Source: Lama glama
Lineage: Eukaryota
Direction: 5' to 3'
Assembly: GCA_028534125.1 (NCBI GenBank)
Contig: CM052840.1
Location: 10,540,001 to 10,604,000, forward strand
Length of the DNA: 64,000 nucleotides
Made by a program: the position numbers and the translations under genes. How positions within the stretch are numbered: the stretch's first letter is position 1; each line of letters begins with the position of its first letter. Positions 1-60,621 of this stretch are shown here, piece by piece. Under the pieces are notes generated by a model. The model worked only from the letters and a program-made list of their open reading frames with translations. It searched no databases and was not told where the DNA came from.

Positions 1-408
1 AGGTAAGTTCATTCTTGTATGGTAAGCTGTTCCCAACATAAAGGGGGTTTGGTACTTAGATGTCCATAGCCCAGTGTTAACCGTATAATCCGTCCCATAA
101 TAGAGGAATGGTACATGCGCCTAACCCCTCAGAATAGACAAGAGGTGACTTCTTTGGTGTTGGTCTAGTTCTTTCCTGAGACTGGGCCTAGGTAGCATTG
201 ACAGAAAACTAATACTGATGTCCAGAGTAACTTAACGTTTGGTTGATGGGCCATCCATTGAGTTCCAGTTAGTGATACCTGTGGTTTCTAGAGTAGTACT
301 GACATTTCTTTCCTCTGAAATGAAATTTCTTAAAGCTACCAGTTGGATCTTTGTAGAGGAGATATCCACCTAGTTAACCCAGAAGTGACAAGGGCAGTTG
401 TCCACAAA
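1..408 (-). pseudogene. Decayed class I (gamma-like) ERV env, SU portion, resembling envR(b)/ERVPABLB-1
   Basis: Manual minus-strand translation across frameshifts gives CGQLPLS..TSGLTRWISPLQRSNW, GWPINQTLSYSGHQY*FSVNAT and LWDGL..LTLGYGHLSTKPPLCWEQ. These are collinear with my recollection of human envR(b) SU blocks (CWVCGSLP..LPWWVSPLQGKDW; WPINKTLNEPGH..FSVNET; IWDGFIWLT..GHLS..PLCWEQ). Stops and frameshifts are present. Confidence 0.75.
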
Positions 409-908
409 NNNNNNNNNNNNNNNNNNNNNNNNNNNNNNNNNNNNNNNNNNNNNNNNNNNNNNNNNNNNNNNNNNNNNNNNNNNNNNNNNNNNNNNNNNNN
501 NNNNNNNNNNNNNNNNNNNNNNNNNNNNNNNNNNNNNNNNNNNNNNNNNNNNNNNNNNNNNNNNNNNNNNNNNNNNNNNNNNNNNNNNNNNNNNNNNNNN
601 NNNNNNNNNNNNNNNNNNNNNNNNNNNNNNNNNNNNNNNNNNNNNNNNNNNNNNNNNNNNNNNNNNNNNNNNNNNNNNNNNNNNNNNNNNNNNNNNNNNN
701 NNNNNNNNNNNNNNNNNNNNNNNNNNNNNNNNNNNNNNNNNNNNNNNNNNNNNNNNNNNNNNNNNNNNNNNNNNNNNNNNNNNNNNNNNNNNNNNNNNNN
801 NNNNNNNNNNNNNNNNNNNNNNNNNNNNNNNNNNNNNNNNNNNNNNNNNNNNNNNNNNNNNNNNNNNNNNNNNNNNNNNNNNNNNNNNNNNNNNNNNNNN
901 NNNNNNNN
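409..908. other. Assembly gap (500 N, probably a placeholder size)
   Basis: N run. Other gaps: 13275-13488, 19891-20390 (500), 48445-48727, 49828-~50004, 60622-61121 (500). Confidence 1.
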
Positions 909-1237
909 TGAACTGTTCTATAGCTTTTCTCCAATTGAGCTTGCAAATAAATTAATGTTAGGAATCCCAAATGATCATCAAGTGGGCCAGTCAAGTCCAT
1001 GCAACAGAAATTTTCAAGAGGACCGCTTGCAAGTTTTTACCGTAAAATGAGCTGAAGTTCCTCACCATGGCTGCCCCTCTGCAGTGCCCTTAGAAACAGA
1101 ACTCCCCATAACTGAGTACTCACCAGGATGAAGGATTCCCTTCCCGTGTAAAGCTGGCAGCAGAGGACACCTTAAGAAAGGCCGATAACCTCGACCATAA
1201 TAGGAGAATGGACAGGACTTAACCCCATGGCCTGTGG
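909..1237 (-). mobile_element. ERV leader plus decayed gag matrix, copy A (no LTR upstream)
   Basis: Splice donor CTG|GTGAGT (plus-strand actcac 1118-1123), then ATG at 1109 giving MGSSVSK (myristoylation-type gag start). Decayed WP..SF.IP / LIYLQAQLEK matrix motif follows. Reverse complement of 19474-19807. Confidence 0.8.
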
Positions 1238-1659
1238 CTGTGAAGAAACGTGGGCATGGTTCTCAAGTTTCTTAAAAATGAGTATTAAGTTTAGATTGGA
1301 TTAGAAAAACTAATATTTGCTCTTCTGTTAATGGTTATGAGTAATAAATAATATGTAACATCTGCACAAGAATATTCAAATAATTCAAATAATTAAAATG
1401 AATCAAAATTAAATTTTCATAGTGGGAGCACTTCCCAGTTGTGTTCTAAGAATTTGTATGGCTGTAATAAAACTGCCTTAGGGCACTGCATTGGCCATCT
1501 GCTTGAATGGATGTTTTCTGTCTGTGTACTAGGGGACTGTGACAGAGGTCCAGCAGGGATGGGGACTGGAGAGAAACTCTTTTTCCATTTGACAGAAGAA
1601 AAGGACAGATTTCATCCAACCTATTCTTATTGTGGTTTATTGCCTGAGGTGTAACAAAG

Positions 1660-2700
1660 GCACCAAACAAAAGGACAATTCTAAATATTGGTGCCCTCAC
1701 TAAAAAGTAAACGACTAATAGAGAAATCGTTTTTCAAGTTGAGCTGTTTTCAATAATTTGCTTTAAATTAAAATGGAAGAATCGAGCTAATTAAATTGTC
1801 AGCTGATATATCACCAAAAATAATTTTTAATGATAACTGATTTTTCACATATAAGTCTGAAATATTTTAAGATACTGAGACGTTCATTGCTATTAAAAAC
1901 AGATTACTATTACAATATGTGTGAACATATTTCTTTAATCTATATTATATACATAATCACCAGAAACTGACACATTGTAATTGACTATACTTCAACTGAA
2001 AAAAAAATGTATTGTATACATGATCACACACACACAACACACACTCACGTGGTAGAAAATTTCTGCTGAATCTTGTCTCTTCTTGGCAATAAGTATATTA
2101 ATCATGAAAACATAAATAACAACAAAAATCTCCATGTATAGGCCATCTCGTTAAGAAAGGTAAATAATTAAAATTTACCTTTTTGTATTTAATAATTATT
2201 TGCTAAATTTATAACATATTATACTATTTTAATTGAATACTCTTCTAAACTCTAATGAGTAATTAATCCACAGGAAAAATTTAAATAGTTAAAATTTTAC
2301 AGAGACAGAATTAAAAGTAAAATTTATGTGCCCACTTTTTGTCACATAAAAGAATGGCAAGGTGAAAAATAAATGCTTTCAAACCTAAAACCTGTTAAGG
2401 AAATGCTATTGAGAGAACTAGGGAGAAATATGAATTGAAGGAAAAAAATAATGTAAAATTTCCTGTAAGGAAATATTTTCTACACATATTTTTTAAATGG
2501 GTAATAGTGGGCATACAATAGCTATGGTATTTAGATTCCTCTGGAGATGTTAAGAAGAGTATTGTAACCATTTTATTTTATAACATCAGCTTTGCAATAT
2601 TCTTTAAATGGCATCCATTGCAAATTTTAGATGTCCATTAAAAATTTTGTGAGAGGTTACATAGATTTAAAACTAAAAATGTTTAGAGAATACTACACTA
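1660..2700 (+). mobile_element. hAT-Charlie DNA transposon fossil (3' part)
   Basis: Blocks such as gctatggtatttagattcc and aaattttagatgtc..gaggttacatag, and a terminal gtttagagaatacta, resemble the recalled Charlie 3' consensus. Subfamily not assigned. Confidence 0.6.
1957..2008 (+). mobile_element. Extreme 3' tail of a young L1 inserted in the Charlie fossil
   Basis: caccagaaactgacacattgtaattgactatacttcaactg followed by poly-A; typical artiodactyl/camelid L1 3' terminus. Confidence 0.7.
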
Positions 2701-3274
2701 AAGTATATTAAAGTTTAGTATTATATTATTTCTAAGCATGAGAATTGCATTAATGATACTGAGCAAGAAGAATAATTTATCCTTGAATTTTTTGATGTAT
2801 AAAAATTTTATGTCCACAAGTAAATGTTGTGAAGAAAGACCTCAGGCTTTGTTCCTCTCCTATTCCTGAACTCATTTCTCTTGAATTCTGCAACCTTTAT
2901 TTCCTGATAGTTTTCCAAAACATTTTGTTGGCCAATGGGTCATAGAGGACTGGAAAGTCCCATATTAAGTAATTTAATTGAATCAAGAAGTCTGGTTCAG
3001 TTGGTGTTAAGTCTTATGCACCCTGCCTTTTTCAAGTTAGCTCTTACTGACAACCGTTGCTGAATTCAGACAAATTAGAGGGAAAATTCAAGGCTCTTGA
3101 CCAAAGAAAGCAAATATAACCAGAGACAACCAGGAGACTTAAAATGTGCCAAGGGACATGGAATCATGGAAAAAGTAAAAAAAAAAGTGTCAAAAACTCA
3201 TTAAAAATGAACACTAACACTAAAAACAGTTTATTTATACACCTGCAACAGGCATTACTTTTACATCGTGAGCA

Positions 3275-4050
3275 TTGATTGATTGATTCACATCTTCATT
3301 CAACATGTTCCACGCACTTTCCTAGAGGTCAGAATACACAAATGAGTAAGACATCAATTTCATGCCAGGAATGAGATACATAAACAAAAAGGGACACTAA
3401 CCCTGAAAGTAGGAGACTGAGTTAGTTGACTGAGTCATCCATGAAAGAAGCAACGTGGGCCTCAACTAAGGGGCCATGGGGATAGAACGGAAGGAAGCAT
3501 TCAAGATATCTGGACTTTTTCACATGTTGAAGTGATTGAATGGACATGAGGATGAGGAAAAAGAGGAAATCTTGATGTCTGCCTCAGACAGCTGAAGGAT
3601 GGGGATAGGGCTGGGGCTGGTACTCACTGCGGCAGAGAATATGTGAGGAACAGCTGGTTGGCAGGGGCAGGAGAGTTTCTACAGCACAAGGAAAGAAAGA
3701 TGCCTGGTAGATGGGCCTCCGAGGGTGGATCAGAAGTGATGTTTATTTCATGGGGTAATAAGATCACTCAGGGGTGGAGTTAAGGGGAGAAGTGGGCTGA
3801 AGGTGGAACTCTGAGGACTCAAGCATTTCGAGGGAGTGAGGAAGGTAAACCGACAAGGTGGCTGAGGGAGAGCAAGACTAGCCAAGGCTTTTAAGAAACC
3901 AGGTGAGGGAAAACCTGAAGTGTTCACTGGACTGATGGAGGTAATCTTGGCCAGAGGAGCTTTAGAGATGCAATGGGAGTTGGAGCAAGATTGCAGTGGC
4001 GGGGGGGAGTGAAGATAATGTGTAACAAATCCAGTTTATTATGCTTTGAG
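3275..4050 (-). mobile_element. L2 LINE fragments
   Basis: attcattcaa-like tail then purine-rich decayed L2 body; heavily diverged. Confidence 0.55.
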
Positions 4051-4319
4051 ATGTTGTTGAGAAGCCAGAATTCATCGGCCTTCCGATGAATTTAAGGATT
4101 CACTCTGAGTGAGGTTAAAATAGACACTGGAGAGGAGAGAAATTACTTTCTGAACCACAACAACAGTAACCCAAGCAACATCACACTAAAAACTAAACAA
4201 CACGAGGCAAGCTCCAAGCTGATTCCTCGGCTTTAAGTTCCCTACACTTTTTTCCTGAGTTTTTCCTCGATTTTCAAATAATTTCTCACAAAATGCCTAA
4301 TTTACTGGTCCTCCACAAT

Positions 4320-4430
4320 GGAAAACTCCATCAGATTAGAGACCAAGTCTGTTTCGATCACCACCATATCCCTGGAACTCAGCATGGGTCCTGGCACATA
4401 GTAATTGACCAATTAATAAAAATGAACTAA
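4320..4430 (+). mobile_element. L2 3' end
   Basis: aaactccatcag..tctgtttcgatcacc..cctggcacatagtaa motif. Confidence 0.6.
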
Positions 4431-4962
4431 TATGTAATATTTTAGAGAAATTACAGATGTCGTAATTGCTAGTACTTTAAACAGCAGAATACAACTGGAA
4501 TTTGAGAAGAGGAAGCCTGGGAGATTAGGAATCATTTCTTTGTCTTTTATTTGAGAAATGAAACAAATTTAAGTATATCATTCATGCAGCAAATATTTAC
4601 TGGGTGCACATGTGCTCATGATATGTTTGGGGGGTGAGAATCCATTTTGTTTCTTATAACTCTCTGTTTAGATCCTTCCTTAAATCAGCCTAGTTATAAA
4701 TAATGTGAATAAAAAGGACTTCTGCTGAACTTTGGAATTATTTGTAGTGAATGTTCTTTGTTAACATCAGACAGAACCAGTTATACCTTAAGCCAAGTTT
4801 ATCAAACATTTTCTAATATGCTGTTTCCAAACACAAGTATTGGCATATTTTTCCATGAGAGCAAGTTCTGTTAACAATGTCTGTTATTTGTATTCAAGAC
4901 AAATTCAATATAGGACTCTTTTTCTTTCATAAATGGCCCTCAACCTTCATTATAAACAAGAC

Positions 4963-5070
4963 ACACCTGGGAATTTGTTAACTCTGCAGATCCCAGAATC
5001 TATACTACAGGAATTCTGATTCTCAGGATTGGAGGTGGAACCTAAGAGATGGAACTTTTAATAAGCACTT
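4963..5070. mobile_element. MER5-like hAT MITE
   Basis: cacctgggaatttgttaa..gcagat..attctgattc..cttttaataagcact. Confidence 0.6.
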
Positions 5071-5784
5071 CATGTCTGAAAAAAAAACCTACCTATTTTT
5101 TTTGTCTAAAATGTAATGATCTAGGCTGCATTCCACCTCCCAGGGCAAACTTCATTTATGACGTCCTTATTAATAAGGACCAGAGACTAGTCCAGTGATA
5201 GGCAATCAGTGTTAAAGTTAATTGAAATCTAGATCTAACAGCTCTTCTCTCTTTGAACAATTTCCCCACGTTTAGAGAAGAGGACTTCTTTAATGGTTTG
5301 TGACAGGAGGATGGGATGGAGGTTATTTACAAGTAATTGTGTTGTGTGTTTCCACTTCAGATGACTTGCTGCTCAAACGTGTGCTGCGGCTTCTGCAGCT
5401 TCAGGGAGAGCAGTGTTTAGGGAGACCCAATACAGGGAAGAGCGAGGGGCAGATGTTACTTATGAGAAGTTCTTCTCTAAATAAACATAAGAGAAGAATT
5501 TGCTGGTGAGGAATACAGGGGAAGATGTGAACAGAGCATCAGTGTGGAAACATCAGTATGTTTAATAAATACCTAATAATAAAGGAGAAGTTTTGACATC
5601 AAGTGGACAACATCCTTCTATATTAATATAAAATATAAAATATTTAAAAAAGTGATTTGCCTACATAAATTAGTAACTAGTAGAATAATTCTGGAAGTTA
5701 AGACCGGAATGTCCTCCTATTTGCCTACTATTAGGGCCCTTTTCTATTTTCACAATAAATTGCTGACTAATTTTGATTAGAGTT

Positions 5785-5935
5785 CCCTGACAAGCAGCAT
5801 GAGCATCACCTGGGATTTTATTAGAATTTTGTCCCCAACCTCCTCTCCCCTAGATCTACTGAGTCAGAGATTCTGGGGAGGAGATGAGGTGCTTTGGGGC
5901 CCGGCAATCTGTATTTTAACAGGTCTTTTAGATGA
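5785..5935. mobile_element. MER5A-like hAT MITE
   Basis: cagcatgagcatcacctggga..ctactgagtcagagattctggg..ggcccggcaatctgtattttaacag. Confidence 0.75.
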
Positions 5936-7781
5936 CCTGTTAAAAGTCTTCTGGCTTTTTATACATGAGCTTTCTGTTTCATAACTTACAGGCAGAGGTA
6001 GCTCTAATGATAAGAATTTTTAATAACTGAACGCAATGACTTTACTCTTTGCTAATTGCAATACATTTCTTACTTTCCTGACACGTTGATTTAAGGAGCA
6101 ATACAACATCTGAGATGTTAACTTGTTTTAAGCGCTGCTTATAAAGAAATGTTTTAAGAATCATTCCATATAAAGTATTCATGTAAAATACTCACATTCA
6201 TAGTTCTTTTTGTTGACAGAATTTTAAAATAAATTTCTAAGTTATTATTTGAAAAGCTAAGGCAGTTGTGCCATTAAGCTTATTCTTTGTTGAAACAACA
6301 AATGATTCTGACGAATCTTATAAACTCTCGACACAGTCATATCATACTTTTATAAGTGCAATCAATTCAATTTTAACTTTTCCTCCACCTGTGGTTTTGA
6401 TTACTTATTAAATGCTTATTATCAAATGGACCTATTAGTCCAACTTCTCTTTGCCTCACTTTTCCTCTCCATAATTTAAAATATTAATCTCTGTATTTTA
6501 ATGAGGTCAAAATGCACTAGAATGATATCTCAAAAGTGCGTTGTCTCTTAGAGGCACTCTGTATCAGCAAGGCTTTTATTATTTTCCCTCATTTCCTTCC
6601 TCTCTCTGGGAGGGCACTTTTGAGATTATATGAAGTTGGAATTTATGAGTTTACACAAATACTGATCAACACAAGACCAGCACTTAAAGAAAAAGAAGTC
6701 ATTGCAAAATATTGTGAATTCTGGGACTGACAATTTTGTTTTGTGGGTTTTCTTCCTGAGGCTGTGTACCAGAAAGGGCAATAAAGGGTAAAACTCATTA
6801 GTGTATCATTATCTTTTGTCTGAAGGAAACAATGTGTGGCTTCTGGGCAGCCCAGTTGGTGTTTGCATTGGTTCTGAGTGTATTTCAAACCAGCTATATT
6901 GTTTAAACAATTCCCCCTCTTAAACATGAAAAGGACCACCACTAAACCACAGAGATGACGCTAAATTACTAGGTGATGATTCTTCTGGCTCCTAAAGGTT
7001 TCTAGATCTCTCACCGAAATCATGGATCTTTCTCCTAATGAGAAAGCTCAGAGCCTTTATGACAGACCTCCCATGTAGTCTTCCCTCTTCTGCCCCCAGG
7101 ATGCTCTGTGGACTTATGAGAAGCTTGGTTTGGAATCAAGGTCATGGAATTTTCTCCAGCCCTGACTCTTCAGCAGTTCCTTAGAAACTGCAAAGTATTC
7201 CCAGGTCTATCTGCAAACCCACATTTATCAGCAACTGTATAATCAACATGTTTGATAGTAAAAATCCAATCTGTTTTCTCTTTATCAAAATAAGGCTTAA
7301 ATGAATATTGGTGGTTTTATTTTATTCTGTCGTTCCCTACATTTACCTATCTTCCATAGGGATTTTCTTGGACTTTTTTTTGAACAGTGATATCAGAAGA
7401 CCATCTATGATGAAATCTTAAAAATATATTTCAGGTCATTTGGGAAGAAAATACCTTTCATACGGATTTCCAGTAAGTATAGTACCATATACTGTGTCTC
7501 CAAAAAGAATATTATTTGATTTATTTTTCAGGTAGATCTAGATTTTAATCATATATCTAGATTTTAAACAACAAAAAATGATTTCCTGTCGTCTGGTTTA
7601 TATTGGTTCCCAGTTAGGAAATTTTTCAGGTTTTAACGTCAGAGACCTAGAAAACGACAGGTGCCAAGAGAGTCATGGTAATTGAACCTTAATTCCGTGC
7701 CCGGATTGTGGGTTTTATTTTTGTTATTATGATGATCAAGTGCCTGATACGATCCAATGATGTAACATGCATTAGTAAATA

Positions 7782-8020
7782 GACAGTTAAGCAGTGATTT
7801 GCATTTACACCCTGGAACTAGACTGCCTGGGCTCCAGCCTCGTTTCCAACACTTCTTACTATTGAAAACCTGAGCAAGTTTTAAAATCTCTTTCTGCTGC
7901 GGTTTCCTCGTCTATGAACAGGGGAAAGAGACTCCGACCAGCTCATAATGTTGCAGTGAGGATTAAATAAGTTAACATGTATGAAACTTCCAGAGTAAGT
8001 ACATTTCCCAGTAAATATTT
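7782..8020 (+). mobile_element. MIR SINE
   Basis: agactgcctggg..gagcaagtt..ggtttcctcgtctat..gtgaggattaaataag MIR core. Confidence 0.8.
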
Positions 8021-9859
8021 GTCAAAGTAAATTCTCATCTTCCAAATAAGAAAACTGAGCTTCTACCATTATTATTAAGGGCCATGAATCACATGTATGT
8101 CTTTCTGACAAAAAGTTCCTTGGTTTTTCCACATATATCACAATGGCTCAAAATGAAAATTCCCTTTACCTTTTTGCAATTTAACAAGGTGCCTTTCCAA
8201 TTACATCATTTTAAGTCTCCAAAGAAAACCATAAAATAATATTTAAAAATGGAAACAACCTACTGTTGTCTGGAATTCTTACTAAACTTTTTTTTAACAA
8301 GGAGCCCCATATTTTTGCTTTCCTCTGTGTGTTCACACTTGGAGGCAAACAATTCAGGGACTGTCTGCTTCGGGCCTCTTCTGGCCATCCTACATTTCTG
8401 GAGGGATTATTTCCGCACATTTATAAACTGCTGGAGCCCATCCATGTGCCCTGGCACATTGGTTAGCAACTCTTCTTCAAGAGAAATGCCTTGAGTTTTA
8501 AAAAAATAATGTATAAATTTGTTGAAAAAATGTTAAAATTTCTGAAACATATTAATAGCCAGGAACGTACATAATGTCAGCAGAAAATAGAAGTCCTAAG
8601 ACATAGATCTACTACCTAATCCCCCAGCTTTCAAAAATCCAGATTCTATGTAGCATCAATCAAAGGCACGACAGAGATGCCAAGAGAGTGAAGGTAGCAC
8701 CTTATGAAGCAGCAGATTTTGCCATGAGTGTTATTTCTAGTCATTTCACAGGGAGAACCAGATTTCATAATTCTTGAAAATCACGCCTGTTAAATTCCTT
8801 TCATGTAACTTACAGATTTGGTTCTCACATTTCTAAGGATGTCAGTTTTTCACATTAATTCAGGCTGTAATTGACTGGCTTGTGCTTTGTGAAGGGATGA
8901 ATATTACTGGAAAAGCAAGGGAATAGAGAGATGCTAGTGCAGAAAGGAAAACTGCAGTTTTGAAATATTATCTGTCAAATTCTGCCATCAGTTGGAGGAA
9001 CAGGGCTAATTAAATCATTCATAAAAGGCAAAATCAATCATTTTCTGGCTGGATGTACTTGCTTTTTCTTTAAGGGATGTGCAAAATTCTGAACAGAAAA
9101 TAGAGTTAGTTTTTATGTGGAGAGAAATGTGTTCTCCCCTATTTTCTCTTTTGAGCTATTAAATCGTCCCAGGTCTGAAGGTCAGAGTTGGTAAGTGAAG
9201 CCTGAGTTTCTCAACTTGCTGTCTAGATGGATTCCTAAGAAAAGCCAACTCCATTTGAAAACTATGTTTTGATCAGAATTTTATCTCATTCAGAAACGTC
9301 CACCTCACAAAAAGAAACATCCTTTTCTGTAGCAACAAATTTCACTGTGATCCTGCTCCAGAATTTGTGCTTTTGGTTAAAAGAGGCTTTGGATAAAAAA
9401 AATTGTACGCATGGCTTGGCATTACTGAATACTAATTTGGAAAACACAAACTCCTAAAGTACAGATTGTCTTTACGAAAGGCAGCACTTTTTTTTTCCTT
9501 GATGAATTTGTTCTTTGACAGAATATCAGTTAATTCTAAAGTATTCCTGCGAGTTTTCAGAGTGTATTCAGTTGTTGTTGTCAGTGACGACGGTGTGTTC
9601 CTTTTTCAATTTTCCTGTGCAGAGGAGCAAAGCTGATTGTCAACTTCAAGAATCTTGGTGCAAGCCAAGTTTTAGGAATTGAGTCATTTAAAATGTGTCA
9701 AGCTAAAAACTCTCTTAACTATGTGAAGGAATCTTCAAGTGGATTCTTTTAAAAGGCAAATACTTTTGGAAGTTGAAGAATCACTCCTTCTCAAGTTTTC
9801 CAAATGTACGTTTCACATACTAGTTTCAGGGAAAACAAAGGATAGTGATGTACTTGGTG

Positions 9860-10105
9860 ATGCCTCCTCTCTAGGAGGAAATCCACTTCCTTGCTCTTTC
9901 CAGCGTTGACTCATGCATGGTTCCCTTTCTCTGTCTCGAAAGCCAGTAACGTTGCATCTCTCTGAGCATTGTTTTTTAACCACAGTTCCCTCTGACCACA
10001 GCTGGGAAAGGCTTTCCTACTTTGAAGACCCATGTATTATGTTGGGCCCACCTGGATTATCCAGGATAAATCCCCATGTTGAGATCATTAACCTAATCAC
10101 CACCA
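9860..10105 (-). mobile_element. MLT1 (MaLR) LTR fragment
   Basis: ttccttgctctttccagc..tgggcccacctggattatccaggataaatcccc..ttaacctaatcac. Confidence 0.75.
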
Positions 10106-11231
10106 TAGATTCCTATGTTCAGAAGCCAGAGTTGCCATAAGGTAAAACAGGATCTGTTTGGATTCAGTTTCTTTTATTATCTGACCACGTCTGATGATGA
10201 AATGGAACTTTTAGCCTTACTGCAGTAGGTGTGTGAGGGTGCTGGGGAGAAGTTTTTTTCTGTGGGATTGTCTGGCAAGGTGAGGAAAGTCAAATAGAAG
10301 GGTTCTTATGAAGTCGTGTCCCAGTGACGTCATGGTAATCTATCTTGTGCCTTACTGATGGGCTCATTTGAACCATTGGATAGATTTCGCTTTTTCAAAA
10401 TTGTCTATTACCACAATTTTTAAAATAAAGCTTGTTAACCTGGTGATTGCTTATTTGCATCAAAGAATTTAGGAAATACAAAAAGGCATGGGTCAGAACC
10501 AGAATGAACATAGAAAAATGACAGCTCATTTAATAAAATAGCAGACCCTTCCCATACTGCTGTTCTCATGGCCGCAGCAAAAGAACCATCTCATCTTGAA
10601 ATGACTTCAGCCCCCGTGGGCTCCTGCCCTACAGCAAGCTAGTGTCAATATCTACTTGACATATTGATTACAGAAAATAGTAAATTAATATATCAGATGA
10701 ATAGAAAACAAAACAGAAAAACAGACAACTTAAATCTGCTCAAAAATCACTAAATTCCAGGATTATCAGAAAGTCCCATGAATATATATTTAATGACTTA
10801 GAAAAATGGTAGTGGAGTGAGTATATTAGTTCTATAAATAGTCTTGAACTCTTGGAGAGCAGACATGTTGGTGAGGTACCTCCCAAGTGATGTCAGGGTA
10901 CTATTAATCCCTCTTAGGTTGATCCTTCTCAGATTTATTTGCACACTCCCTAAGACACTGACACTACCCTTACTGCTTGGAAGAAAACTATTTAATAAGC
11001 AAACACAGAGCCAGCCCTTACATTCACTACCCAAGGACCCTTGGCATTCTTAGGACAAGGTTGTTCCTCATGCTAGTTAACGTTTCAATTCCAAGGTTCT
11101 ATTTGTAGATGCTCATTGACCATCTGACAACCACATTGGGCCCTAAAAGTTTCTCGAGAAAAGGGAGTAGCTCAGCATCTCCTAAACCATAAATCTCTGA
11201 AAGCTGGTTCCACGGAATGATAGATTTCTAT

Positions 11232-12625
11232 GACTGCCTTTCTCTCTGTATCTTCAACTTTCGCGGTTTTAATTATGGTATGTCTCAGAGTAAATCTGTT
11301 TGGGTTCATCTTGTTTGGAACCCTCTGTGCGTCCTATAACTGGATATCTGCTTCCTTCTACAGGATAGGAAGTTTTCAGCCATAATATCATCAGTCATCA
11401 AATAAATTTTTATCTCCTTTCTCTCTCCTTTTCTTTTTCTGGGACCCCGTCCCCAGTGCAAATGATAGTAAACTTGTTGTTACCCCAAAGGTCCCTTAAA
11501 CTATTCTCATTTTTAGTTTGTTTTTCTTGTTTGCTGTTCTGATTGAGTGGTTTCTATTATTCTAGCTTCCAGATCACTTATGCTTTCTTCTGTATCACCT
11601 ACTTGCTATTAATTCCTTCCAGTGTGTTTTTCACTTCAGTTATTGTATTTTTTACCTCTGACTGATTCTTTTTTATAGTTTCTAGTTCCTTGTTAAATGT
11701 ATCACTGTGTTCATCGATTCTTTTCCCTAGTTCAGTTGGCATTCTTATTACTAGTGGCTTGGACATTTTATCTGCTAAATTATTTATCTGCTTCAGTAGT
11801 TGTTTTTTGAGGGCTTTTTTTCTCATTTCCCCATTTGAAACAGATTCCTCTCTCTTCTCATTCGGCTTAACTTTCTCTGTCTCTATGAAATAAGGTGAAA
11901 CAGTTCCGTATCCTGGTCTTGTGTGGATGTCCTTGTGTGGGAACGTCCCTATGCAGTCTGTGTGTGCTCAGTGCTTTGGTAGGAGGGCTGGGTATGAAGT
12001 GAGCACGGGTCACATCTTCCCTCAGGGTGAGCTGGCCGGAGATGGCGCTGGAGATGGAGGGGCTAGAGCTGGAGCCAGGTGTGAGCCAGGGCTTCTCCTT
12101 TGCTCAGTGGCTGTCACTGCCCTATTGGGGGCGAATTCACGTACCAGGGTGCTGGGTGCAGAATCCCTGAGGTTCGGGGGTGAGAGCTAGAGGGGGCAGA
12201 GGGGCATGCACTGGGACAGCTGTGGGAAACCACCCAGAGTTCTGGGCCATTTCCATTTGCTTCCTTTGCCTCGTGCCCAGGAGTAAGCAAGCATGTGTGC
12301 GCTCTTCAGGGGTGGAGTCTAGGCTTCTTATTGCCCTCCTGTCAGTCCCGCTGGTTTCCTGAGCTACTCACTCGCTAGGGAGGATCTCTGAGCCATGTAA
12401 TCCCTTTCTTTCCCTGTGTGCCCCCCTAGGCGTGCAGGTCCTGACCTGGTTGTGACTCTTTCTATCTTCCCTAACTCTGTGTGGATCATCGTTTACAGCC
12501 TTGGCTGTAGATGAGTCTTTCTGCCAGTCTCCGGGTTAGTTTCAGTGAGCATTCCTCGATGTGTAGATGTGTCTTTGATGTGTTCCTGGGTGGAGGTGAG
12601 CTCAGCATCCCCCTCCACCATCGTT
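11232..12625 (-). mobile_element. L1/HAL1 5' UTR plus decayed ORF1
   Basis: ORF 11599-11826 reads ELGKRIDEHSDTFNKELETIKKNQSEVKNTITEVKNTLEGINS, an L1 ORF1 coiled coil. GC-richer 5' UTR ends in ggaggtgagctcagcatcc..ccatc, the typical L1 5' terminus. Confidence 0.9.
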
Positions 12626-12859
12626 ATGACACATAGTTTTAAATAATAGTTATCACTAACCACTCTGACGTGGAAAAACAACAAATGAAATCATTCTTTT
12701 AAAAAATGGTTAATTTGCCTTGGACCCTAGAGAAAATATGTGAGGAAGGAAGAGTGCATTGGTACTTTGGTATGAAGTGGGGTGAGAAGTTGATGCCTGT
12801 GCCTGTGCAATTCAATTTTCTCAGTCCAGTAGGATGGGTAGTAATTTATCCTAGGATAG

Positions 12860-13800
12860 GGAGTATGGCATATTGAAAATATAAGTTTGGAGTTTAAGAG
12901 AAAGTTCCAGCTGGGGCTGTTGATCTACAGACCATCTGTAGTGAAGTGCATGAGGATAAGATCTCCCAGGATTAATGTGAGTTTTAAAAGAGACAAACAT
13001 CAAATCCTGGAGAAAACTGATATTTGGGATGAGCAGAGGCTAAAATTCCTTTGAATGAGATGGAGAAATTTGGAAGGGGGAGCGCCCAGAACCCAAGCAA
13101 GGCAAGAGTACCGTGGAGGTGGGTGCTGAGCAAAGTGGGATGCCACAGGATGTTAGAGAAGATAAGACTAAAATGGCCAATTAATTCCTAACAAATTAGA
13201 CACCTTAGTTGAAGCAGTTTTGGTTATGCTGTGGGATATAAACACAGAATTTTTCTCCCAGAAGCTAGAAGAGGNNNNNNNNNNNNNNNNNNNNNNNNNN
13301 NNNNNNNNNNNNNNNNNNNNNNNNNNNNNNNNNNNNNNNNNNNNNNNNNNNNNNNNNNNNNNNNNNNNNNNNNNNNNNNNNNNNNNNNNNNNNNNNNNNN
13401 NNNNNNNNNNNNNNNNNNNNNNNNNNNNNNNNNNNNNNNNNNNNNNNNNNNNNNNNNNNNNNNNNNNNNNNNNNNNNNNNNNNNNNNNAATGGGAGCTAC
13501 TTGAATATATTTAAATTGAGAGCAAAATATAGGAGGAGTGTGGAAATATAGGAAAGAAAAAACAGAATGCTGGACAAGATTAGATAGCTAATTCTCTGAG
13601 ATGGGAAGTAATGAGAAAAAAATAGCTGTGGAGGGAGATAAGTTTTAAGGATGAGGGAATTCATGCCTGGTCACCAAGCTGATCTCTGAAGCTGTCTCCT
13701 AGAGAACACAGACAAGGAAATGGGGTGAAGCTTAAGAAGCATGGTAATTGCAGGACATGGCACTGGAGGGAAGGAAAAATGGAGCCAAGACCTAAGGAAA
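12860..13800 (-). mobile_element. L2 LINE fragment spanning a gap
   Basis: Purine-rich decayed L2 body (..agaagataagactaaaatggcca..). Confidence 0.55.
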
Positions 13801-16800
13801 CAGCAAAAAAGTGTTCAGTAACTTCTACAAAAAATGAAGGTGTATTACCCTATGATAAAAAATAGAAAAAAATATCAATAATATAAATCCTACAAAATAC
13901 CCATGATTTATGCAATAACTTCCATCATGTTCTATAGAACTTTACTTCAGACGTTGAAACCAGACATGATTGACAGACTCCACCCCCATAAAAAAGCTGA
14001 ATTCTGCTTTATTAAAACTAATGAAACATTAAATATCAATATACTTCATATGTTTGAAACAACAGAATTCAAAACTAATGAAAGTCAATAAATTAAGAGA
14101 AGGACAAGCTGAAGTAGGATTGTCTGGAAAGTAAAATTTCTTGGCCACACTAACCTTCAATTTTATTACTCTTATTACTTATAAACTACCTAAAAAGCCC
14201 AGGGGTTCAAGTTGAGTGTGCCCCCAAATGCTAAGGTCTGCAGTTCTGTCTTGACTCTCAGACTTTTTATTTTTTTGAGAATACTTCTTATTTCCTCTTG
14301 ATTGATTTTCTTCTAGCAATGTCAACCCGTTTAAGTAGAACTGACATACAGTACCTCCTTAGGTCTAACGAAGAGCTGGGAACCTGGGAAAAGGTTTACA
14401 AGAGCATGGAATTATCAGTCATCCCCCCTCTGCCCACATCTGTATTAAAGACATGTAAAGACATTTCTAGAACCTAGTTTAGTAGACAGCATGTACTCAG
14501 TGAGAAACTATTTATTTATAAAATATTAAATTGAGTGAAATAAAATGTGTATATGCTCTCCCAAAATTAACCTGAAACTTGGCACACTGGCTAAAAATAC
14601 TTTGAAATATCTCTCAAAGGAACAATTTTTAGATACTGCATTTTAGAAGTGAAATAACTGTATCAGATAATTGGCAGCAATGTCGTTTTCCCAGGTACTT
14701 ATGCCAAGAGCATGGCAGACATCCATGATGGCTTGATGTAGATCAGAAAGGACTGAGACAGCATTTCATGCTTACAGAACTAGAGACATTTGGAAGGGGA
14801 AGTTAGCCTCATTTGCCATGTTAAACCCAAGCCATGTGCATGGAGCTGCTCTTCCTCACTAGCCAGGCCCTAGTCATCCCAGCCTTATTTACCACTCCCT
14901 CTGGATTTCTCATAATAGCCTGACGCATGCCAAATTGGTCAGAACTCCAGTTACGAAGTCTGATTGAAGGTCTTCCTGTAGATGACAAGTCTTTGTATGT
15001 GCCTAACCAGCCAGGATATCATCCCCTTTTCCAGGTCCATCCTCTGAACTTGCAGGAATGAACCATCTAAAAGTACTTAGGAAGAAGAGAAACACATACT
15101 ACCTTCTAGAGGAGAGGAGAGCCAAAGATCTCTCTTCTTTCCTGGATTCCCCACCCAAGGCCCTAATTTGCTTCTGTTATTAGCTGTTACAACATTCTCT
15201 TGATCATTCAGAACACCAGGCTCTCAACACAATGAATTTATACATTGATACATGGTTTTAAAATATGCATGAGCACTTCCAGGACTTTGAGAGACCCTCT
15301 TGAAATAGTGTGTTCAGACTCTCTGGAACATGTAATCTGTAAACACATGGTGAAGAAATGACTCGGAGGCTTTGGAGAGTGGAATGAGGAAAAGGGCAAT
15401 TGACTCATCATGATAAATAAACTCTGTGTAACACGGATGAAATGGAGATTTTAAACTGCAAAGTTATTGTAAATTTTCTAGTTATCTAGGTCTCTGAATT
15501 ACAAACACTGGAAACCCATTCTGCCTTCCTGCTTCACACTGACAGCAACACTTTGCTTGGTCACATTTGAGATCTTGTGGCTTTTGCTTCATTCCATTGT
15601 TGACGCCTCCTCTTTTGTTTTCTCAAAATGGAAATATTTGTTCTGTCTGCGTTCTAATTGCTTGCTTTGGTGTCTTACTATGCATGAGGGCTGTGGTAAC
15701 TCAGATGACTCAGGACCCCTTGCTATGTGCTGGGATTTCATATCTCATGACATAAGTTGGCATAGCTATCAGCCACCCTGTTCTATGCGCCTGCCTAAAT
15801 TGCAGTTATGTCTCTGATTGAAAGTCAGTATTATTTTATTCCTCTCTATAGAGAGGAAACCCAGAACTATCATTCTGTACACACACCAAACCACAGGAGC
15901 CTGGGTGAGGGTCTGTAATGATGTGGTCTCCTATACAGCTCATTTGCAAGCTTTCGACAAATCACCTGGACTTTTCTTTGTCTAGACTACCTCACTGCGT
16001 TGAAGAGCTCCTTTGCTAGACGGGTGTGGGGGTAAAAGGGCACGAATAGGCCTTCAAGTCTTGCCAAGAGAAGAGGAGAGAAAACCAGGATTAGAACCAA
16101 GAAAACAAAACAGAACCTGAAATCCTTGAAGGGACTGCTTCCTAGAGCACACACGCTAGGTTTAAAAGTGATCTGGGAGGTTGTGTTCTAGTAAGACTGG
16201 AATCACATCCATTAATAGCAGAGAACACATTAAACATTGTATAAAAATCCCAAGAAGAAATGGGCTTCTTGAGAGAAGACAGTTGCTAAGGAGGGAAGTG
16301 GCACTGCTCAGTTTCTCCCCTACCAGCACTGATGGGAATTCTTCTGCTTTGTTCTGCTTTCCTGGCATCGTCCCAGTTTGTTTTTTCAGACTGACAGAAA
16401 ATGGGCTTGTGTGGGACACTCTGACTTCTCTCTGGCTCATGCCTGTGGCGAACGCTAAGAGAAATTGGTTTTCTTGGCTCTAAGTTTCCTCGGATAAAAG
16501 GGTCGGCTCAGCTCTAATAACAGCAGGTTGCATTTTACCATTCTTAAGAGCGTGAGATGAAAATGAATGTTGATATGTCCGGACAGTATGGACGTAGGCT
16601 AGGGAGAGGAACCCCAAAGGGGCCCACAGATCGCTGCAGTAGACTGGAAGACTGTGGTACAAGACTGGCCCCTCCTGGGCTGGAGCTGTGACTTTGGTTG
16701 CCAACATGCTAAGGCTCAGAAACATCAATGTCTTTAGCCAAATTTTCAAGTCTCTGCTGGTTAATTCACTTCCCAAGTCTCCTCTGTTCAGTTCATTTCT

Positions 16801-17252
16801 TTTTCTCCCCATGCTCAAAGACTTAGTTGTTTCCTAGAATATGATGATTGGTTTCACTTTGCAGCTGTCTTTTGTCTCAATTATGTCTCCCTTGATGGAT
16901 CTAATTTTGAGTTTGATCGAGCTGTTAGTGGTCCACAAGTTTGAAGGATTTTTTTTCCCCTACCTCTATAAATTCTTTGTGCATTGCAAGGATATTTTTC
17001 TGGAATAAATATACTGATAAATCCTCAAACTGGATGTAAACTGAAGAACTGATCTGTGTTCGTTCCAGCAAGACAAGGAAATGACCTAGGTTCCTGTTTC
17101 CAAATCTGAGGAAATCATTGAGGCAAAAGCCATGAAGGGCCCAGAGTCTGTTTTACATAACTGGTCCTAGGCTGGGTGCAGATAATCTGGGCTGGGCGGG
17201 GCCATGCTTGCGTCTTTATCACATATTCTCTTCATTATTATATTGATTAACT

Positions 17253-17455
17253 CAGTGGTTTTCAGCCAGGTATGACTCTCCCTTCCCTGCCCCACCCAGG
17301 AAATATTTGTCAATGTTTGGAGTCACTTTGGGTTGTCACTGCTTTGGAATTTAGAGCGTAGAGGCCAGGAATGATGCTAAACATCCTACAAAAGGACAGT
17401 ACTCCACAAGAAAGACTTCACTCTGAGGTCAACAGGATCCAGACTGAGAAGCCAA
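17253..17455. mobile_element. MER20 hAT MITE
   Basis: cagtggttttcagcc..caatgtttggag..gggttgtcac..gtagaggccagg..atgctaaacatcctaca..tgagaagcc. Confidence 0.85.
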
Positions 17456-18921
17456 TTAGATTGATCTGCCAGATGGCTCTGCCACTCACTCACATTTCTC
17501 CAGATGCGTGGAATTCAGAACTCTCTCTATCCACTCCATAGCAACTGATTCAGCATTTTACTTTCTCAGGAGCTGATGCATTCTTCTTACAATGCTGGAT
17601 AACTCTTTGAATTTTTTCACTCAGTTCTGGCAGAACTGGAATCATCTGATGCTTTGGCATAGGAAATTTATGATCCAAATTAATCATCCATAAGACTTTG
17701 TTTATGCTTCTGATTTGGGACAAAGGTGTCCTAATTTTTTTGTGCTTAGTATGCTAGTATGTTTTTATCTTTCAAAAACATATTTAAGCATTCTAGTCAA
17801 TTGAACTTTCTTGCAAAAATTATTCATTGTCTCTGAGGAAAAAAGAGCTCTCTCCACTCTTATAAATTCTACAGGATCCCACCCAAAATTCACCTTCTTT
17901 CTTTGAAGCCTCATACTTTCCTTCTTACACATTCTCAAGATCCCACTGAAATAATTCTTCTGTGAAGCCTCTCAAACATAAGCTACTTTCCTTCCTAGGT
18001 TTCAGAAGCATTTTCTAGATCACTGTATCATGACTCTTTGTCTCTAATGTCAGCTCCCCCATCAGACTGAGAATTACCTAAGGCTGAGCCGGGCTCGCTT
18101 CACCTTAAGGTGGTTCTGCAGTCTGGGAGGGTAAGAGAGGAAGCACACTGTGAAATGTGTTGGGTAAGTCCAACACAAGTTCAGAAGGGACAAAGTACAC
18201 CTTAAAAAAATTTGACATAAACACAAAATATGTCATCAGTGGTAACTTGCTATAATATTAAAATCTACCTTGACATTAATCTTTCATAGGAATAACTAAG
18301 TAATTATATTTCAAAGGGTATTGATTTATAGGCCTGGCACTATTTCTGAAACTTGATCTCTTGAGAAATATCATATGTAATGTGGAACTACTATAATTTT
18401 TTACAGTACGGTATATCTACTCTATGAAAGTAAGAAGAGAATGAAAGGGGGTTCATATACTCAAAACGCTTCAACTGTGACTTAAAAAATTTTATATCAA
18501 TCAGTGGTTTCAAGCCAGTATAGGAAAAACAGTTCAATTCCTGTATTTCTAACCATTTTCAATTTTGCCTATACCCCTTAACACATCTCTTTCACTTTGT
18601 TGAGTGATCTTTAGCATTTAAAAATACGTGGTTTTAGTTTCCTGAGTGTTAAAACTCTGTTCCGTTTTCCTATCTTTATCTCTGGTGATTTGTGTGCACG
18701 TTGTAAAGAACTGTAAACTATCAGACTCTCTGGATCTTCCCATTCCTTCAGCATATGAAGTTATGCAAATCTCAGAGTTCAAAGCTAACATCAGGCACAC
18801 CAACTCATTCATGAGAGAAAATAAGCTTGAATATTGTATATCATTAAATATAGTACATCTAAAATATGACTGTTTTGCAAGGTCGTTTCATTAACCAAAA
18901 AAACCCCACCTTATTAATTAG

Positions 18922-19366
18922 TGTGAAAAAAAAATCAAAATGGACTCAGCATTGCTAAGATAGCTCTCTAAAATGGAGCCAGGAGACCACTAAGGAAGTG
19001 GGACTTACACACATCTTAGCCCGATAGAATCTAAACTCTGACCTCTTACTGTCTTAACACAGGCATCCCGAACATCTGCACAATGTTCCAGAAACTAAAG
19101 ATACTTATCGAACCCTTACCCTAAACAGCTCATGTCAGCCTAAACGTTAAGGACAAATATTTCTTTCTTGCATCAGAGCCAATCATAATTCTTGCCAGAC
19201 AATTTTAACAACCTTGTACCTTTGGACTCTATAAGCCCCTGAGTCTTTCGCTTCCCTAGTAAATTATTTCCTTTTACCTAAATCTCTGTCTCCTAGACTG
19301 CAATTCCTAAGACACCAAATAAAGCTCTCTGTGGTTTGGAGCCTCAGTACTGATTATTGTTCAACA
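18922..19366 (+). mobile_element. ERV1-type LTR (~445 bp)
   Basis: TG...CA termini (tgtgaaa..ttcaaca), aaaatggactc U3 start, CCAAT at ~19179, TATAA at ~19230, AATAAA at 19318-19323; followed by ERV internal sequence. Confidence 0.85.
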
Positions 19367-19890
19367 TTACACAGAGGCAGAACTGGGAGCCAGACTCTCC
19401 TCTGTCTCTGTTGCTGTGGATGCAAGTAAGGGGCCTCTGGGAGTCTCCTGAACTCTGTTGTCTCCTGGGTGGCCCACGGCCATGAGGTTAAGTCCTCTTC
19501 ATTCAGATCCTCCCATTTTGGCCGAGGTTCCCAGCCTTTCTCAGGGTGTCCTCTGCTGCCAGCTTTACATGGAAAGGGAATCCTTCATCCTGGTGAGTAC
19601 TCAGTTATGGGGAGTTCTGTTTCTAAGGGCACTGCAGAGGGGCAGCCATGGTGAGGAACTTCAGCTCATTTTACGGTAAAAACTTGCAAGTGGTCCTCTT
19701 GAAAATTTCTGTTGCATGGACTTGACTGGCCCACTTGATGATCATTTGGGATTCCTAACATTAATTTATTTGCAAGCTCAATTGGAGAAAAGCTATAGAA
19801 CAGTTCATCCAGAAAGAGAAACATATTTCAGTCAGTATTCTGAGGACTCCAAATGTAATAATGAATCCACCTTTGCTTCCCTTAGAGAAA
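19367..19890 (+). mobile_element. ERV leader plus decayed gag matrix, copy B
   Basis: Donor CTG|GTGAGT at 19593, ATG at 19607 giving MGSSVSKGTAEGQPW*, then DWPT**SFGIP / LIYLQAQLEK..ETYFSQYSEDSKCNNE..ASLRE. No intact primer-binding site recognised. Runs into a gap. Confidence 0.8.
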
Positions 19891-21009
19891 NNNNNNNNNN
19901 NNNNNNNNNNNNNNNNNNNNNNNNNNNNNNNNNNNNNNNNNNNNNNNNNNNNNNNNNNNNNNNNNNNNNNNNNNNNNNNNNNNNNNNNNNNNNNNNNNNN
20001 NNNNNNNNNNNNNNNNNNNNNNNNNNNNNNNNNNNNNNNNNNNNNNNNNNNNNNNNNNNNNNNNNNNNNNNNNNNNNNNNNNNNNNNNNNNNNNNNNNNN
20101 NNNNNNNNNNNNNNNNNNNNNNNNNNNNNNNNNNNNNNNNNNNNNNNNNNNNNNNNNNNNNNNNNNNNNNNNNNNNNNNNNNNNNNNNNNNNNNNNNNNN
20201 NNNNNNNNNNNNNNNNNNNNNNNNNNNNNNNNNNNNNNNNNNNNNNNNNNNNNNNNNNNNNNNNNNNNNNNNNNNNNNNNNNNNNNNNNNNNNNNNNNNN
20301 NNNNNNNNNNNNNNNNNNNNNNNNNNNNNNNNNNNNNNNNNNNNNNNNNNNNNNNNNNNNNNNNNNNNNNNNNNNNNNNNNNNNNNNNNNTCTCAGAACA
20401 GTTTCCCCACTTGGGCCCTCAAAATAAGTTTTCAAAGAATTTTACTATATTTAATTCAGAACCCACATTAAAAACAAACAAACAAAACAAAACCCCTCCA
20501 AACCCACACACAATTAGAGCAGGGAAGTTCTGACTTACCCTCAAAACTTATGCTTCACAAGCAGATTTAAGGAAAATTTCTCTCTGTCTCAACATAACAT
20601 TAAGGCAAAGATTACTACACAGTGACAAAGCTAAATCATCTCAGGAGGATAGAGTTCCTCGCTCACTAATCATTATCATCCACCAAGAACTAGTATGCTG
20701 TTAATACTTGTAAAGCTCTCTGGACTGGAAATTCATTACTAGCAAAAGTATGAGTCCATCTTTATTCTATGTAATTAATCTAATTTGACTTCCAGTCACT
20801 GCTTAGCAGAAATGGACCCTGACTTCCTTCTCCGTGAAGAATAGGATCTTTACTTGGGGGAACAGCGGATCTGTGAGCAGGAATGTGTTATAATTACATC
20901 TGTATTTTAAGAATATTTATCTGAAGGTATGTTTCTGTACTATTAGATGTTCCTCATTATGTTATACTCAGCCATTCTTTTAACAGAGGTTAAAGCTCAC
21001 CCAGAATTA

Positions 21010-21605
21010 CATTTGAGCTCTTTACCAAGGCTGTGACACTGCATAGGATCTGGCCCTTGCCTGCTTTTCCACCTCAAATTGTGCCACTGTTGTTTGCACA
21101 CTAAGCTCTGAGCACATTCACCTCTAACTTTTTTTTTTTTGCAGGGAGGGAAGTAATTAGGTTTATTCACTTATTTATTTATTTAAGTGGTGTTACTGGG
21201 GATTGAACCCAGGACCTCATGCATGCTAGGCAAGCACTCTACCACTAAGCTATACCCTCCCCCAACAATTACCTCCAGAAGTTCCTAGAAAACACATGGT
21301 CTGCTCTTTCCCGGCTCAGGAACTCTGTGCTTTTCTCCCAACCTCTATCTAACTGGCTTCTTCTTAGCTGATAACCCCTCCAAGGAAATTTCCCCACCTA
21401 CTCAATCTAAAGCAACACATACCATTTTCTACATAGCAACTAACAAAACTATTTATTATTTACTTGTTCATTTGTCAGTCTCTGCCGCTGTAAAGTGAAG
21501 GCATGGATGATACAGTCACGGTCCTTCAGGGTATCCCCAGAGCTTGGCAAGGTGACCAATGTGCACAAGAAGCTCAAAAATATTTGTTGAATGAATAAAT
21601 TGAAT
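21010..21605 (+). mobile_element. L2 3' region, interrupted by a SINE
   Basis: ctgcataggatctggcccttgcc..gtatccccagagcttggca..ctcaaaaatatttgttgaatgaataaat L2 tail. Confidence 0.8.
21129..21263 (-). mobile_element. Vic-1-type camelid tRNA-derived SINE
   Basis: Reverse complement GGGGAGGGTATAGCTTAGTGGTAGAG..GGTTCAATCCCCAG (A and B boxes), AT-rich linker, poly-A. Confidence 0.9.
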
Positions 21606-58609: not shown

Positions 58610-60621
58610 TTCTGACCATGATGAAGTAGCTTTTATCAGCCTAACTCTCTCAATGGGCACTATTATAAAAGCTGGATAAGATACAAAAACAATGGCCTGA
58701 AGACATCAGAAAGCAGCTAAGGTAGCCAGGACTTGAGAGGTCAACATTCCAGAGAGAGAGAAGCACATTGAGCTGAACACAACAACTGTCTTTGCCTTTT
58801 CTGCTTGGAGTTTACACCCCATGGCAGCACATGAACTAGAGGCCAAATGCAGAGTGGTGTATGGGGATTGCCCTTGGACAGGGACATTAGAGACCAATAC
58901 TTACAAGACATCCACTTCTTAGAAATCAGATCCCAGAGAGCAGGAAATTAAACCTCCAAGGCTTTGAGCCTAAAATCCTATGTGAAAACTTTCCTCAAGT
59001 TTTTAGTTGATGTTTAATATGTACGTCGATGGAACAAGAAACTTCTGAGAGTCTACAGAGTTAAGCAGAGATTTTTGGCAGTCTTGCAGGGCTGGAAAAA
59101 CAGAGGTAGGATTTTAGGATATGCCAAGGAAGAGGAGCTTCAGTGATTATTCATAGTCTTCAGTTGAGTCCACTGGTAGACAACTAGAAAATCCATAAAT
59201 ATTTGGAAATTAGGCAATACATTTCTAAATGACCCATGGGTTGAAGATAACATCAAAATGGGAGCTAGAATATCAGCAAATAAGAAAGTGTTTTGAAATA
59301 AATGATAATAAAAAATCATATAAAGTGATGGGATGCTGCTAAAGCAGGTTCTAGAGGAAAATATAAAGGCATATGTTAGAACAAAAGAAATACTAGAAAT
59401 AATTGATGCAAGTATTCATCAGATAAGCTAGAAAAAGGATAGCAAATTAAACCAAGAGTAAGAAATGAAGCAATAAAGCTAATGGTGGGTATCAGAGAAA
59501 CAGCAAACATAACACTGTACATAAAAAAAAGTAAAGCCAAACGTTCACTTTGAATAACCTAATAAAACAGATAAACTACTCAGAAGATTGATAGTCTGAA
59601 AAGAGAAAAACACCAATTGCTAGCACAACCATAGTTCCCACAGATAGTAAAGAAATTGATAAAAGGATATAGTGAACAACTTATACCAAAATTTGGAGAG
59701 TTATGGTCAAACAGACACAATTCTTCAAGCAGAATGGACAATTCACTAAAATCAAAGTCAGAAGAAACAGGAATTCTCACACAATACAAAAGTCAAATCC
59801 AAGTGGATCAAAGACATGCATATCTTTATGACTTTGGTGATAGACAAAAATTTCTTGAATATCAATAACTATAATAGAAAGGATTGATAGATTGGACTGA
59901 ATTAAAACTTAAAACTTCTGTTCATCAACAGACACCACTGAGAGTTTAAAGGCAAACCACGGTGTGGGAGAACAGACTTGCAATACATATAAAGGATTCA
60001 CATACAGACTATATAATTAACTCCTATAAAGAAGTAAGAGAAGGACAATCTAAGAGAAAAATGGGAAAAGATTTAAACAGCCCTTCACAGAAGAGGATAG
60101 CCACGGACAATTTTGAAAAAGTTCTATACATTATTATTCACCAGGGAATAGCAAATGGGGACCACAATGCAATTTCACTCCAAACCCACAAGACCACCTA
60201 AAATAAAACGGACACCAAGCATTGGCAAGGATGTGGAGGAACTAGAAATATGATACCTGCCAGAGAGAACATAAGTCAGTATGATCACTTTGGAAAATGT
60301 TTGACAGTATCTACAAAGGCTGAAAATATGTACATGCTATGGTATAGTAATTCCACTCCACTGTAGGTTTAGTTTCAATTGTTCAAAAACTGGAATAAAA
60401 GCAAAGATCCAGTATAACAGACAAATTGTGTTACAATTTACATAATGGAATAATACAAAGCAATGAAAAAGAATGTATAACTTTCACACAAAAATCATGA
60501 AGTTAATATTCTATGTCTTGATCTGGGTGATGGTTTCACAGGTGTGTTCATTCTGAAAAATCAAGCTGTACACTTTACTTAGTAATTGTGCACTTTTGTG
60601 TGTGTGATATTTCTATACAAA
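58610..60621 (+). mobile_element. Old, internally deleted L1M (5' end, ORF2 pieces, 3' UTR)
   Basis: atttggaaatta..atttctaaatgacccatgggt; aattaaaacttaaaacttctgttcatca; attggcaaggatgtggagga; cttgatctgggtgatggttt. Confidence 0.85.

Follow-up and report, generated by a model that had tools for sequence, protein, structure and literature searches.

The 64,000-nucleotide stretch analysed here (the window; positions 10,540,001 to 10,604,000 of contig CM052840.1 in Lama glama assembly GCA_028534125.1) carries near its left end two short, inverted, almost identical copies of what appears to be the decayed gag start of an endogenous retrovirus (ERV), separated by a spacer of about 18 kb. Self-BLAST of the entire window returned three non-trivial matches, namely this inverted pair, a 199-bp exact direct match, and two copies of a short interspersed element (SINE). 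The top match joined 909-1237 to 19807-19474 in inverted orientation with an E value of 5e-144. The parts of the structure, in window coordinates, are as follows.

909..1171, minus strand: left arm core, comprising the putative ERV leader end, a splice-donor-like site and a decayed gag start, and reading outward to the gap
1172..1237, minus strand: left shoulder, a diverged putative ERV leader with no long terminal repeat (LTR) upstream
1238..19473, no strand assigned: candidate invertible segment, an 18,236-bp spacer containing the sized 214-N gap 13275-13488
19474..19544, plus strand: right shoulder, as delimited by pairwise alignment
19545..19807, plus strand: right arm core, with a splice-donor-like site at 19593 and an ATG at 19607-19609
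19808..19890, plus strand: gag-like continuation of the right arm, 83 bases between the end of the match and the gap
409..908, no strand assigned: fixed-size 500-N gap that would hide the left ERV continuation
19891..20390, no strand assigned: fixed-size 500-N gap that would hide the right ERV continuation

Pairwise alignment divided the pair sharply in two. The core (909-1171 against 19807-19545) extends over 263 bp without gaps and is identical at 260 of the 263 positions (98.9%); its three mismatches, at 1025/19691, 1143/19573 and 1146/19570, comprise two CpG transitions and one non-CpG transition, with G/C on the left and A/T on the right in every case (a pattern with a chance probability of 0.25). 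The shoulder (1172-1237 against 19544-19474) contains 10 substitutions in 65 aligned bases, 7 of the 10 being transitions, together with three indels, for an identity of 85% over aligned bases and 76% with gaps counted. This step in divergence from 1.1% to 15.4% is not a product of chance (Fisher p = 8.9e-6), and a perfect run of 25 bp (1147-1171) borders the shoulder directly. A homogenised tract adjoining older, diverged homology, as expected of a concertedly evolving inverted repeat, is therefore present at this locus. An initial annotation, made from the letters alone, had reported a match of about 264 bp with three mismatches, two of them CpG transitions, followed by an abrupt fall to ~80% identity with indels; the mismatches and the fall were recovered as described, while the core proved to end at 1171, position 1172 being already a shoulder mismatch. 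It had also stated that both copies carry the same gag stops and point outward to 500-N gaps. The stops indeed agree in all three reading frames over the shared span and both copies do face outward, with the left arm touching the gap at 409-908; the right match stops at 19807, 83 bases short of the gap at 19891-20390. No homology was found inward of 1237/19474 (alignment score 198, shuffle mean 201), and the outer flanks of the two arms gave no match when aligned to each other. Aligning the left outer flank with the right arm gave a score of 161, compared with a shuffle maximum of 159, in a gappy alignment that was taken as noise.

The corrected divergence of the core is 1.15%, that of the shoulder 17%. 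With a mammalian rate of 2e-9, which was assumed, and the camelid rate given in PMC8605555, these values correspond to 1.2-2.9 million years for the core and 17-43 million years for the shoulder, the latter being derived from 65 bases only (raw 95% interval 8-26%) on the assumption that the copies began identical.

Both arms look by eye like the leader and gag start of a decayed class I ERV of PRIMA4/HEPSI-like type, a likeness for which profile searches gave no confirmation. Frames of the arms are similar to the Gag N-termini of PRIMA4, HEPSI1 and HEPSI3 in an unscored comparison by eye that took in 35 of the 47 entries of PMC4724089 supplement 3, the likeness being split over three frames and broken by stops, and a strong splice-donor-like site at 19593 precedes the ATG at 19607 by 14 bases, a layout of retroviral type. 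These observations favour the ERV gag identity first proposed for the copies. None of the three right-arm frames matched Pfam, a PDB search with one arm frame and word-seeded protein searches with arm frames each gave 0 matches, and the Atlas yielded no usable match; a full HMMER search returned two weak unnamed matches, with 4 and 6 matched stretches lying far from the N-termini, which count neither way. Five short motifs sought in the PMC4724089 supplements led to no relevant place. Because the arms are as poor in CpG as their surroundings (observed/expected 0.07-0.23, background 0.21), the arm sequence is taken to be old, and the HEPSI supergroup (PRIMA4/HEPSI1/HEPSI3; MER4 group) is described in PMC4724089 as old, with LTR divergence of 13-31%. 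The likeness to these families takes in Gag N-terminal and Env SU frames, again by eye and unscored; they are human elements, however, and pol would here fall in the gaps. Two further features beside the arms bear on the anatomy.

1..408, minus strand (the strand of the left gag): decayed env-like sequence, from an unscored by-eye likeness of minus-strand frames to PRIMA4a Env (PMC4724089 supplement 4)
18922..19366, plus strand: LTR-like element of 445 bp with TG...CA ends and AATAAA at 19318, possibly an unrelated solo LTR

A search of 1-408 in three frames gave no retroviral Pfam match and one sub-threshold unrelated match, and this segment did not match the right outer flank. On the left, the order leader, gag, gap, env on a single strand would be that of a provirus lacking its 5' LTR; no LTR was found upstream of the left copy and no LTR pair within the window. 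The LTR-like element on the right has 4-bp flanks that agree at three of four bases, is followed by no evident primer-binding site, and has no second copy within the window (eight stretches, both strands); of its 16 alignment scores, 3 lay slightly above the highest of just 10 shuffles, an excess taken as noise. The element may have no connection with the gag remnant beside it and be a solo LTR. At the beginning of the right outer contig, 20391-20460 (plus strand), which we take from a resemblance to be a possible LTR 3' end, did not match it.

This anatomy bears on the explanation that the two copies belong to a dispersed young family of non-autonomous ERV1 elements, in which the lesions were inherited from a master element and the closeness and orientation of the copies are coincidental. 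Alpaca carries large clusters of short non-autonomous ERV1 and an LTR burst at 1.5-4 million years ago (Mya) (PMC8605555), and the core age of 1.2-2.9 million years matches. In a young family of this kind, each copy would be preceded by an intact LTR and a primer site. Here, by contrast, the left copy has neither and its leader is 15% diverged, and the right side shows no evident primer-binding site after the LTR-like element.

The contig ends bear on whether the two copies are real. The window contains six gaps, three of them exactly 500 N long, a fixed join size reported for 3D-DNA/Juicebox assembly (PMC10320752). The 18,982-bp block between the two 500-N gaps beside the arms consists of two arm-bearing contigs joined by the sized 214-N gap, and by this link the copies lie inverted on one chromosome in the assembly. 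The third 500-N gap, which lies outside the structure, served as an internal calibration.

60423..61320, no strand assigned: contig end and following contig start overlapping exactly by 199 bp at the third 500-N gap

At this gap (60622-61121), and at only one of the six, the flanking sequences 60423-60621 and 61122-61320 are exact 199-bp duplicates; the pair is an unmerged assembly overlap and not a biological direct repeat, and the true size of the gap is probably zero. Abutting edges in de Bruijn assemblies overlap by k-1, with an effective k near 200 in the case of Supernova (PMC5411770). The exact 199-bp overlap thus calibrates K-1 at 199, and from this we infer an assembly made at K=200. 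The last base at which the right arm can be told from the left is 19691, and exactly 199 bases follow it before the right contig ends. In a toy assembly graph, two real copies run on for 199 bases beyond their final difference and then merge into a collapsed repeat. Going by the position of the right end, the data probably contain a second sequence that has the left-type base and is identical over at least 199 bases. Both copies probably continue, identical, into both gaps, as had been supposed from the letters alone, and the short-read assembly would have broken there because the homogenised arms continue inside. The three mismatches argue, in addition, against a single contig end having been pasted twice. 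The contig-end geometry is strong circumstantial support for real copies, not proof, and we consider it quite likely that both local copies are real.

If the pair were instead an assembly artefact, the left arm would be a chimeric contig end, in which the assembly passed from an old diverged remnant to reads derived from the right locus, or from the other allele of that locus, or else the 214-N gap would join sequences that are not neighbours. Both arms do lie at contig ends beside placeholder gaps, in a window with six gaps and one demonstrably false 199-bp 'direct repeat', and the left end departs from the simple 199 rule. However, the right end at 199 implies a second sequence with the left-type base in the graph, the left contig continues for 263 bases beyond the step, which is more than K, and three differences in 263 bp would be many for a pair of alleles. 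As the source of the identity, heterozygous inversion involving diverged copies was rejected, since in the toy graph it stops both contig ends at the shoulder, which does not fit and which also counts against the artefact. We therefore regard an artefact as unlikely.

The explanation to which we give the highest probability, roughly 0.6, is non-reciprocal homogenisation of a local inverted ERV pair by gene conversion, acting once or repeatedly. The starting point would be two decayed PRIMA4/HEPSI-type class I ERV copies, inverted, outward-facing and 18.2 kb apart, that arose either as two old insertions of one family or by one old inverted duplication. After gag had decayed, intrachromosomal non-allelic recombination would have copied one arm onto the other without exchange, in one long tract or in repeated tracts, the last copying falling ~1-3 million years ago; the shoulder would be the inner edge of homology left behind, and the homogenised arms would extend for some length inside both gaps. 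Copying is placed after decay because the stops and other lesions are common to both copies. Since a crossover exchanges flanks and cannot make diverged copies alike, the transfer would have been non-reciprocal, and crossing-over alone was rejected as the source of the identity. Of the conversion or crossing-over that the initial annotation had seen in the core and its diverged edge, non-reciprocal copying after decay is therefore what we retain. Its further statement that two insertions are 'being kept' identical goes beyond the evidence, as the same picture would result from an old inverted duplication or from a single long copying event in recent times. The collinearity of left gag, gap and env-like sequence and the missing LTR of the left copy were counted in favour of conversion between ERV copies, and ectopic conversion among LTRs is documented (PMC4921805).

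Several points weigh against gene conversion. The shared sequence in view amounts to only 263 bases, the two outer flanks show no match and the outer arm ends lie beyond the visible sequence, the comparison covers a single assembly, and the core age overlaps the alpaca LTR burst at 1.5-4 Mya (PMC8605555). Moreover, the left contig stops 116 bases past its last difference, not 199, and this end requires an extra assumption. Among five scenarios in the toy simulation (a plain K=200 unitig graph on random sequence that ignores read-pair resolution), two gave both 199 and 116, these being a heterozygous site at 908 and a third copy that differs from both arms at 1108. The literal value K=200 would be that of DISCOVAR/w2rap-type assemblers. 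Because position 1108/19608 proved to be the T in what looks like the gag ATG, the suggestion that 1108 is a decayed CpG, which would have favoured a third copy, was dropped. The same simulation bears on a dispersed family: one identical to the left core would place the left contig end ~195-199 bases into the core, near 973, whereas the observed end is at 909, 263 bases in, and even with a third copy the two arms would share the 1108 state against it and remain sisters. Together with the missing LTR and primer sites, this leaves a dispersed family the least probable of the explanations considered, and very unlikely.

A third copy is also a feature of another alternative, in which a single copying event at 1-3 Mya placed a stretch that starts in the right ERV into an old related left ERV, through a young inverted segmental duplication or a template switch guided by the diverged leader. 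The duplicated unit may include host DNA and may have more copies, and no continuing homogenisation would be involved. The single abrupt step with the 25-bp perfect run beside it and the absence of an LTR from the left copy are as this alternative would have them, and a third copy would account for the 116-base left end. Against it, the outer flanks look like ERV continuations and are unmatched to each other, which points to arms limited to the ERV; the site at which the third copy would differ, as part of the gag ATG, has no special reason to vary; and mechanistically a duplication of this kind grades into one long conversion tract. We judge it improbable, to about the same degree as an assembly artefact.

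Under gene conversion, the same pairing of arms, if resolved as a crossover, would invert the spacer. One assembly cannot show an inversion because a flipped block looks the same at both joins. It is possible that the spacer is a flip-flop inversion of the kind well known in mammals; that both orientations segregate is a tentative prediction, rather doubtful as matters stand. The arms exceed the 90% identity associated with inversions arising through non-allelic homologous recombination (NAHR), at 260/263. Their length, with 263 bp visible, ~346 bp inferred by the 199 rule and the remainder inside the gaps, compares with a known NAHR range of 654 bp to 24.2 kb in PMC6748972, according to which 24 of 45 inversions were NAHR products with arms of at least 654 bp, 21 of the 24 having mixed haplotypes. 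Palindromes have been defined by arms of at least 8 kb at 99% identity or more (PMC8327919); the identity here is 98.9% over the visible part only, and two ERV bodies could probably approach an arm length of 8 kb without exceeding it.

Retroelement-flanked inversions of similar size are known in humans, and those listed in PMC3961182 Table 1 include HsInv0347 (THE1C, 1.6-kb arms, 7.1 kb inverted), HsInv0341 (L1PA3, 6.2-kb arms, 20.8 kb inverted), HsInv0114 (old transposable-element pieces, 2.7-kb arms, 14.7 kb inverted) and HsInv0403, whose arms include MER41C and MER4A parts. They share with the llama locus inverted and highly similar retroelement arms, a similar spacer size and the NAHR route; theirs, however, have validated orientations and full arms, whereas here internal ERV1 leader and gag sequence is visible over 263-346 bp in one orientation. 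What is new at this locus is the 199-base reading of contig ends, retroelement-derived inverted repeats around human inversions of 7-21 kb being already known.

A parallel with the FLNA-EMD inverted repeats had been drawn at the outset. We take the human inversion HsInv0389 to be that of these repeats. HsInv0389 has arms of 11.3 kb and a 46.8-kb inversion (PMC3961182 Table 1), and FLNA-EMD is palindrome P24 in PMC8327919, according to which conversion keeps the arms of primate X palindromes alike and about half of the spacers differ in orientation between primate species. Both cases have inverted arms far more alike than their apparent age, with conversion proposed and spacer inversion expected. 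The primate palindromes, however, are large segmental duplications with genes in their arms or spacer, arms more than 99.8% identical (98.9% here) and cross-species proof of concerted evolution, while the llama spacer holds no known gene, and the parallel is too strong for 263-346 visible bases set beside arms of 11.3 kb. Dead proviruses are also known as recombination substrates with conversion patches, a further likeness to the present pair. The AZFa proviruses lie in direct orientation and give deletions. ERV-mediated ectopic recombination has been described for HERV15 at AZFa and for HERV-H in t(4;18) (PMC3292815); the HERV-H pair sits on different chromosomes, and the LTR conversion study (PMC4921805) concerns LTRs, not internal gag. 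Among the listed openly licensed papers, none was found to report on this locus or on a camelid inversion with ERV flanks.

We take the feature to be probably real and gene conversion, as proposed in the initial annotation but without the crossover, to be its likeliest cause. If the arms are real, the locus is a candidate inversion of a kind that would escape both short reads and single-nucleotide polymorphism arrays, and the orientation given to the 19-kb block in the reference is not to be trusted; Hi-C scaffolding is reported to misorient short pieces (PMC7672694; 10.1101/254797). A functionless ERV pair would be a clean case in which to ask how long conversion keeps inverted repeats alike without selection on arm genes. 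It would be more far-reaching still if two dead, gene-free ERV bodies, their unconverted edge diverging over some 17-43 million years, had been kept ~99% alike over several kb by repeated conversion through camelid evolution, with a recurrently flipping 18-kb spacer segregating inside a first intron. This we think unlikely, but if true it would be a purely retroviral counterpart of FLNA-EMD, as well as a way to ask, free of selection, whether concerted evolution can be sustained by proximity and inverted geometry alone. With the rule of '199 bases after the last difference', collapsed repeats that are real can be told cheaply from chimeric contig ends in such assemblies. Nothing points to a phenotype or an effect on a gene.

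The host locus was examined for a gene around the block. A CpG island at 35220-35700 (GC 0.66, observed/expected 0.86) has a plausible minus-strand splice donor at 35332 and is probably, judged on composition and this site, the non-coding first exon of a candidate gene. A rough splice scan built on splice-site matrices, which gave 18 plus-strand and 23 minus-strand candidates, supplied no downstream exon or gene model for the 35332 donor, and the placement of the segment within a first intron, as first put forward, is not borne out by the island and donor. Inside the block, exon-like stretches at 5361-5505 and 7360-7472 (plus strand) are phase-compatible, the second having one in-frame stop; their splice scores were ordinary and below the candidate list of the scan, 5361-5505 had no protein homologue, and they are probably due to chance. 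An attempt to orient the block from exons gave nothing, and strand skew showed no usable asymmetry. The block also contains a 122-codon open stretch at 11602-11967 (minus strand), which resembles L1 ORF1.

Outside the block, two tRNA-derived SINE copies (21129-21265 and 38638-38769) are 77% identical, and the only Rfam match was the tRNA-like SINE head at 21188-21259; we take both copies to be akin to a camelid SINE. At 56327-56526, a short insert of retroposon-like character begins T-rich and has a target-site duplication of 13 bp without mismatch (56327-56339 = 56514-56526); the insert looks young and presumably sits in an older L1-like 3' end.

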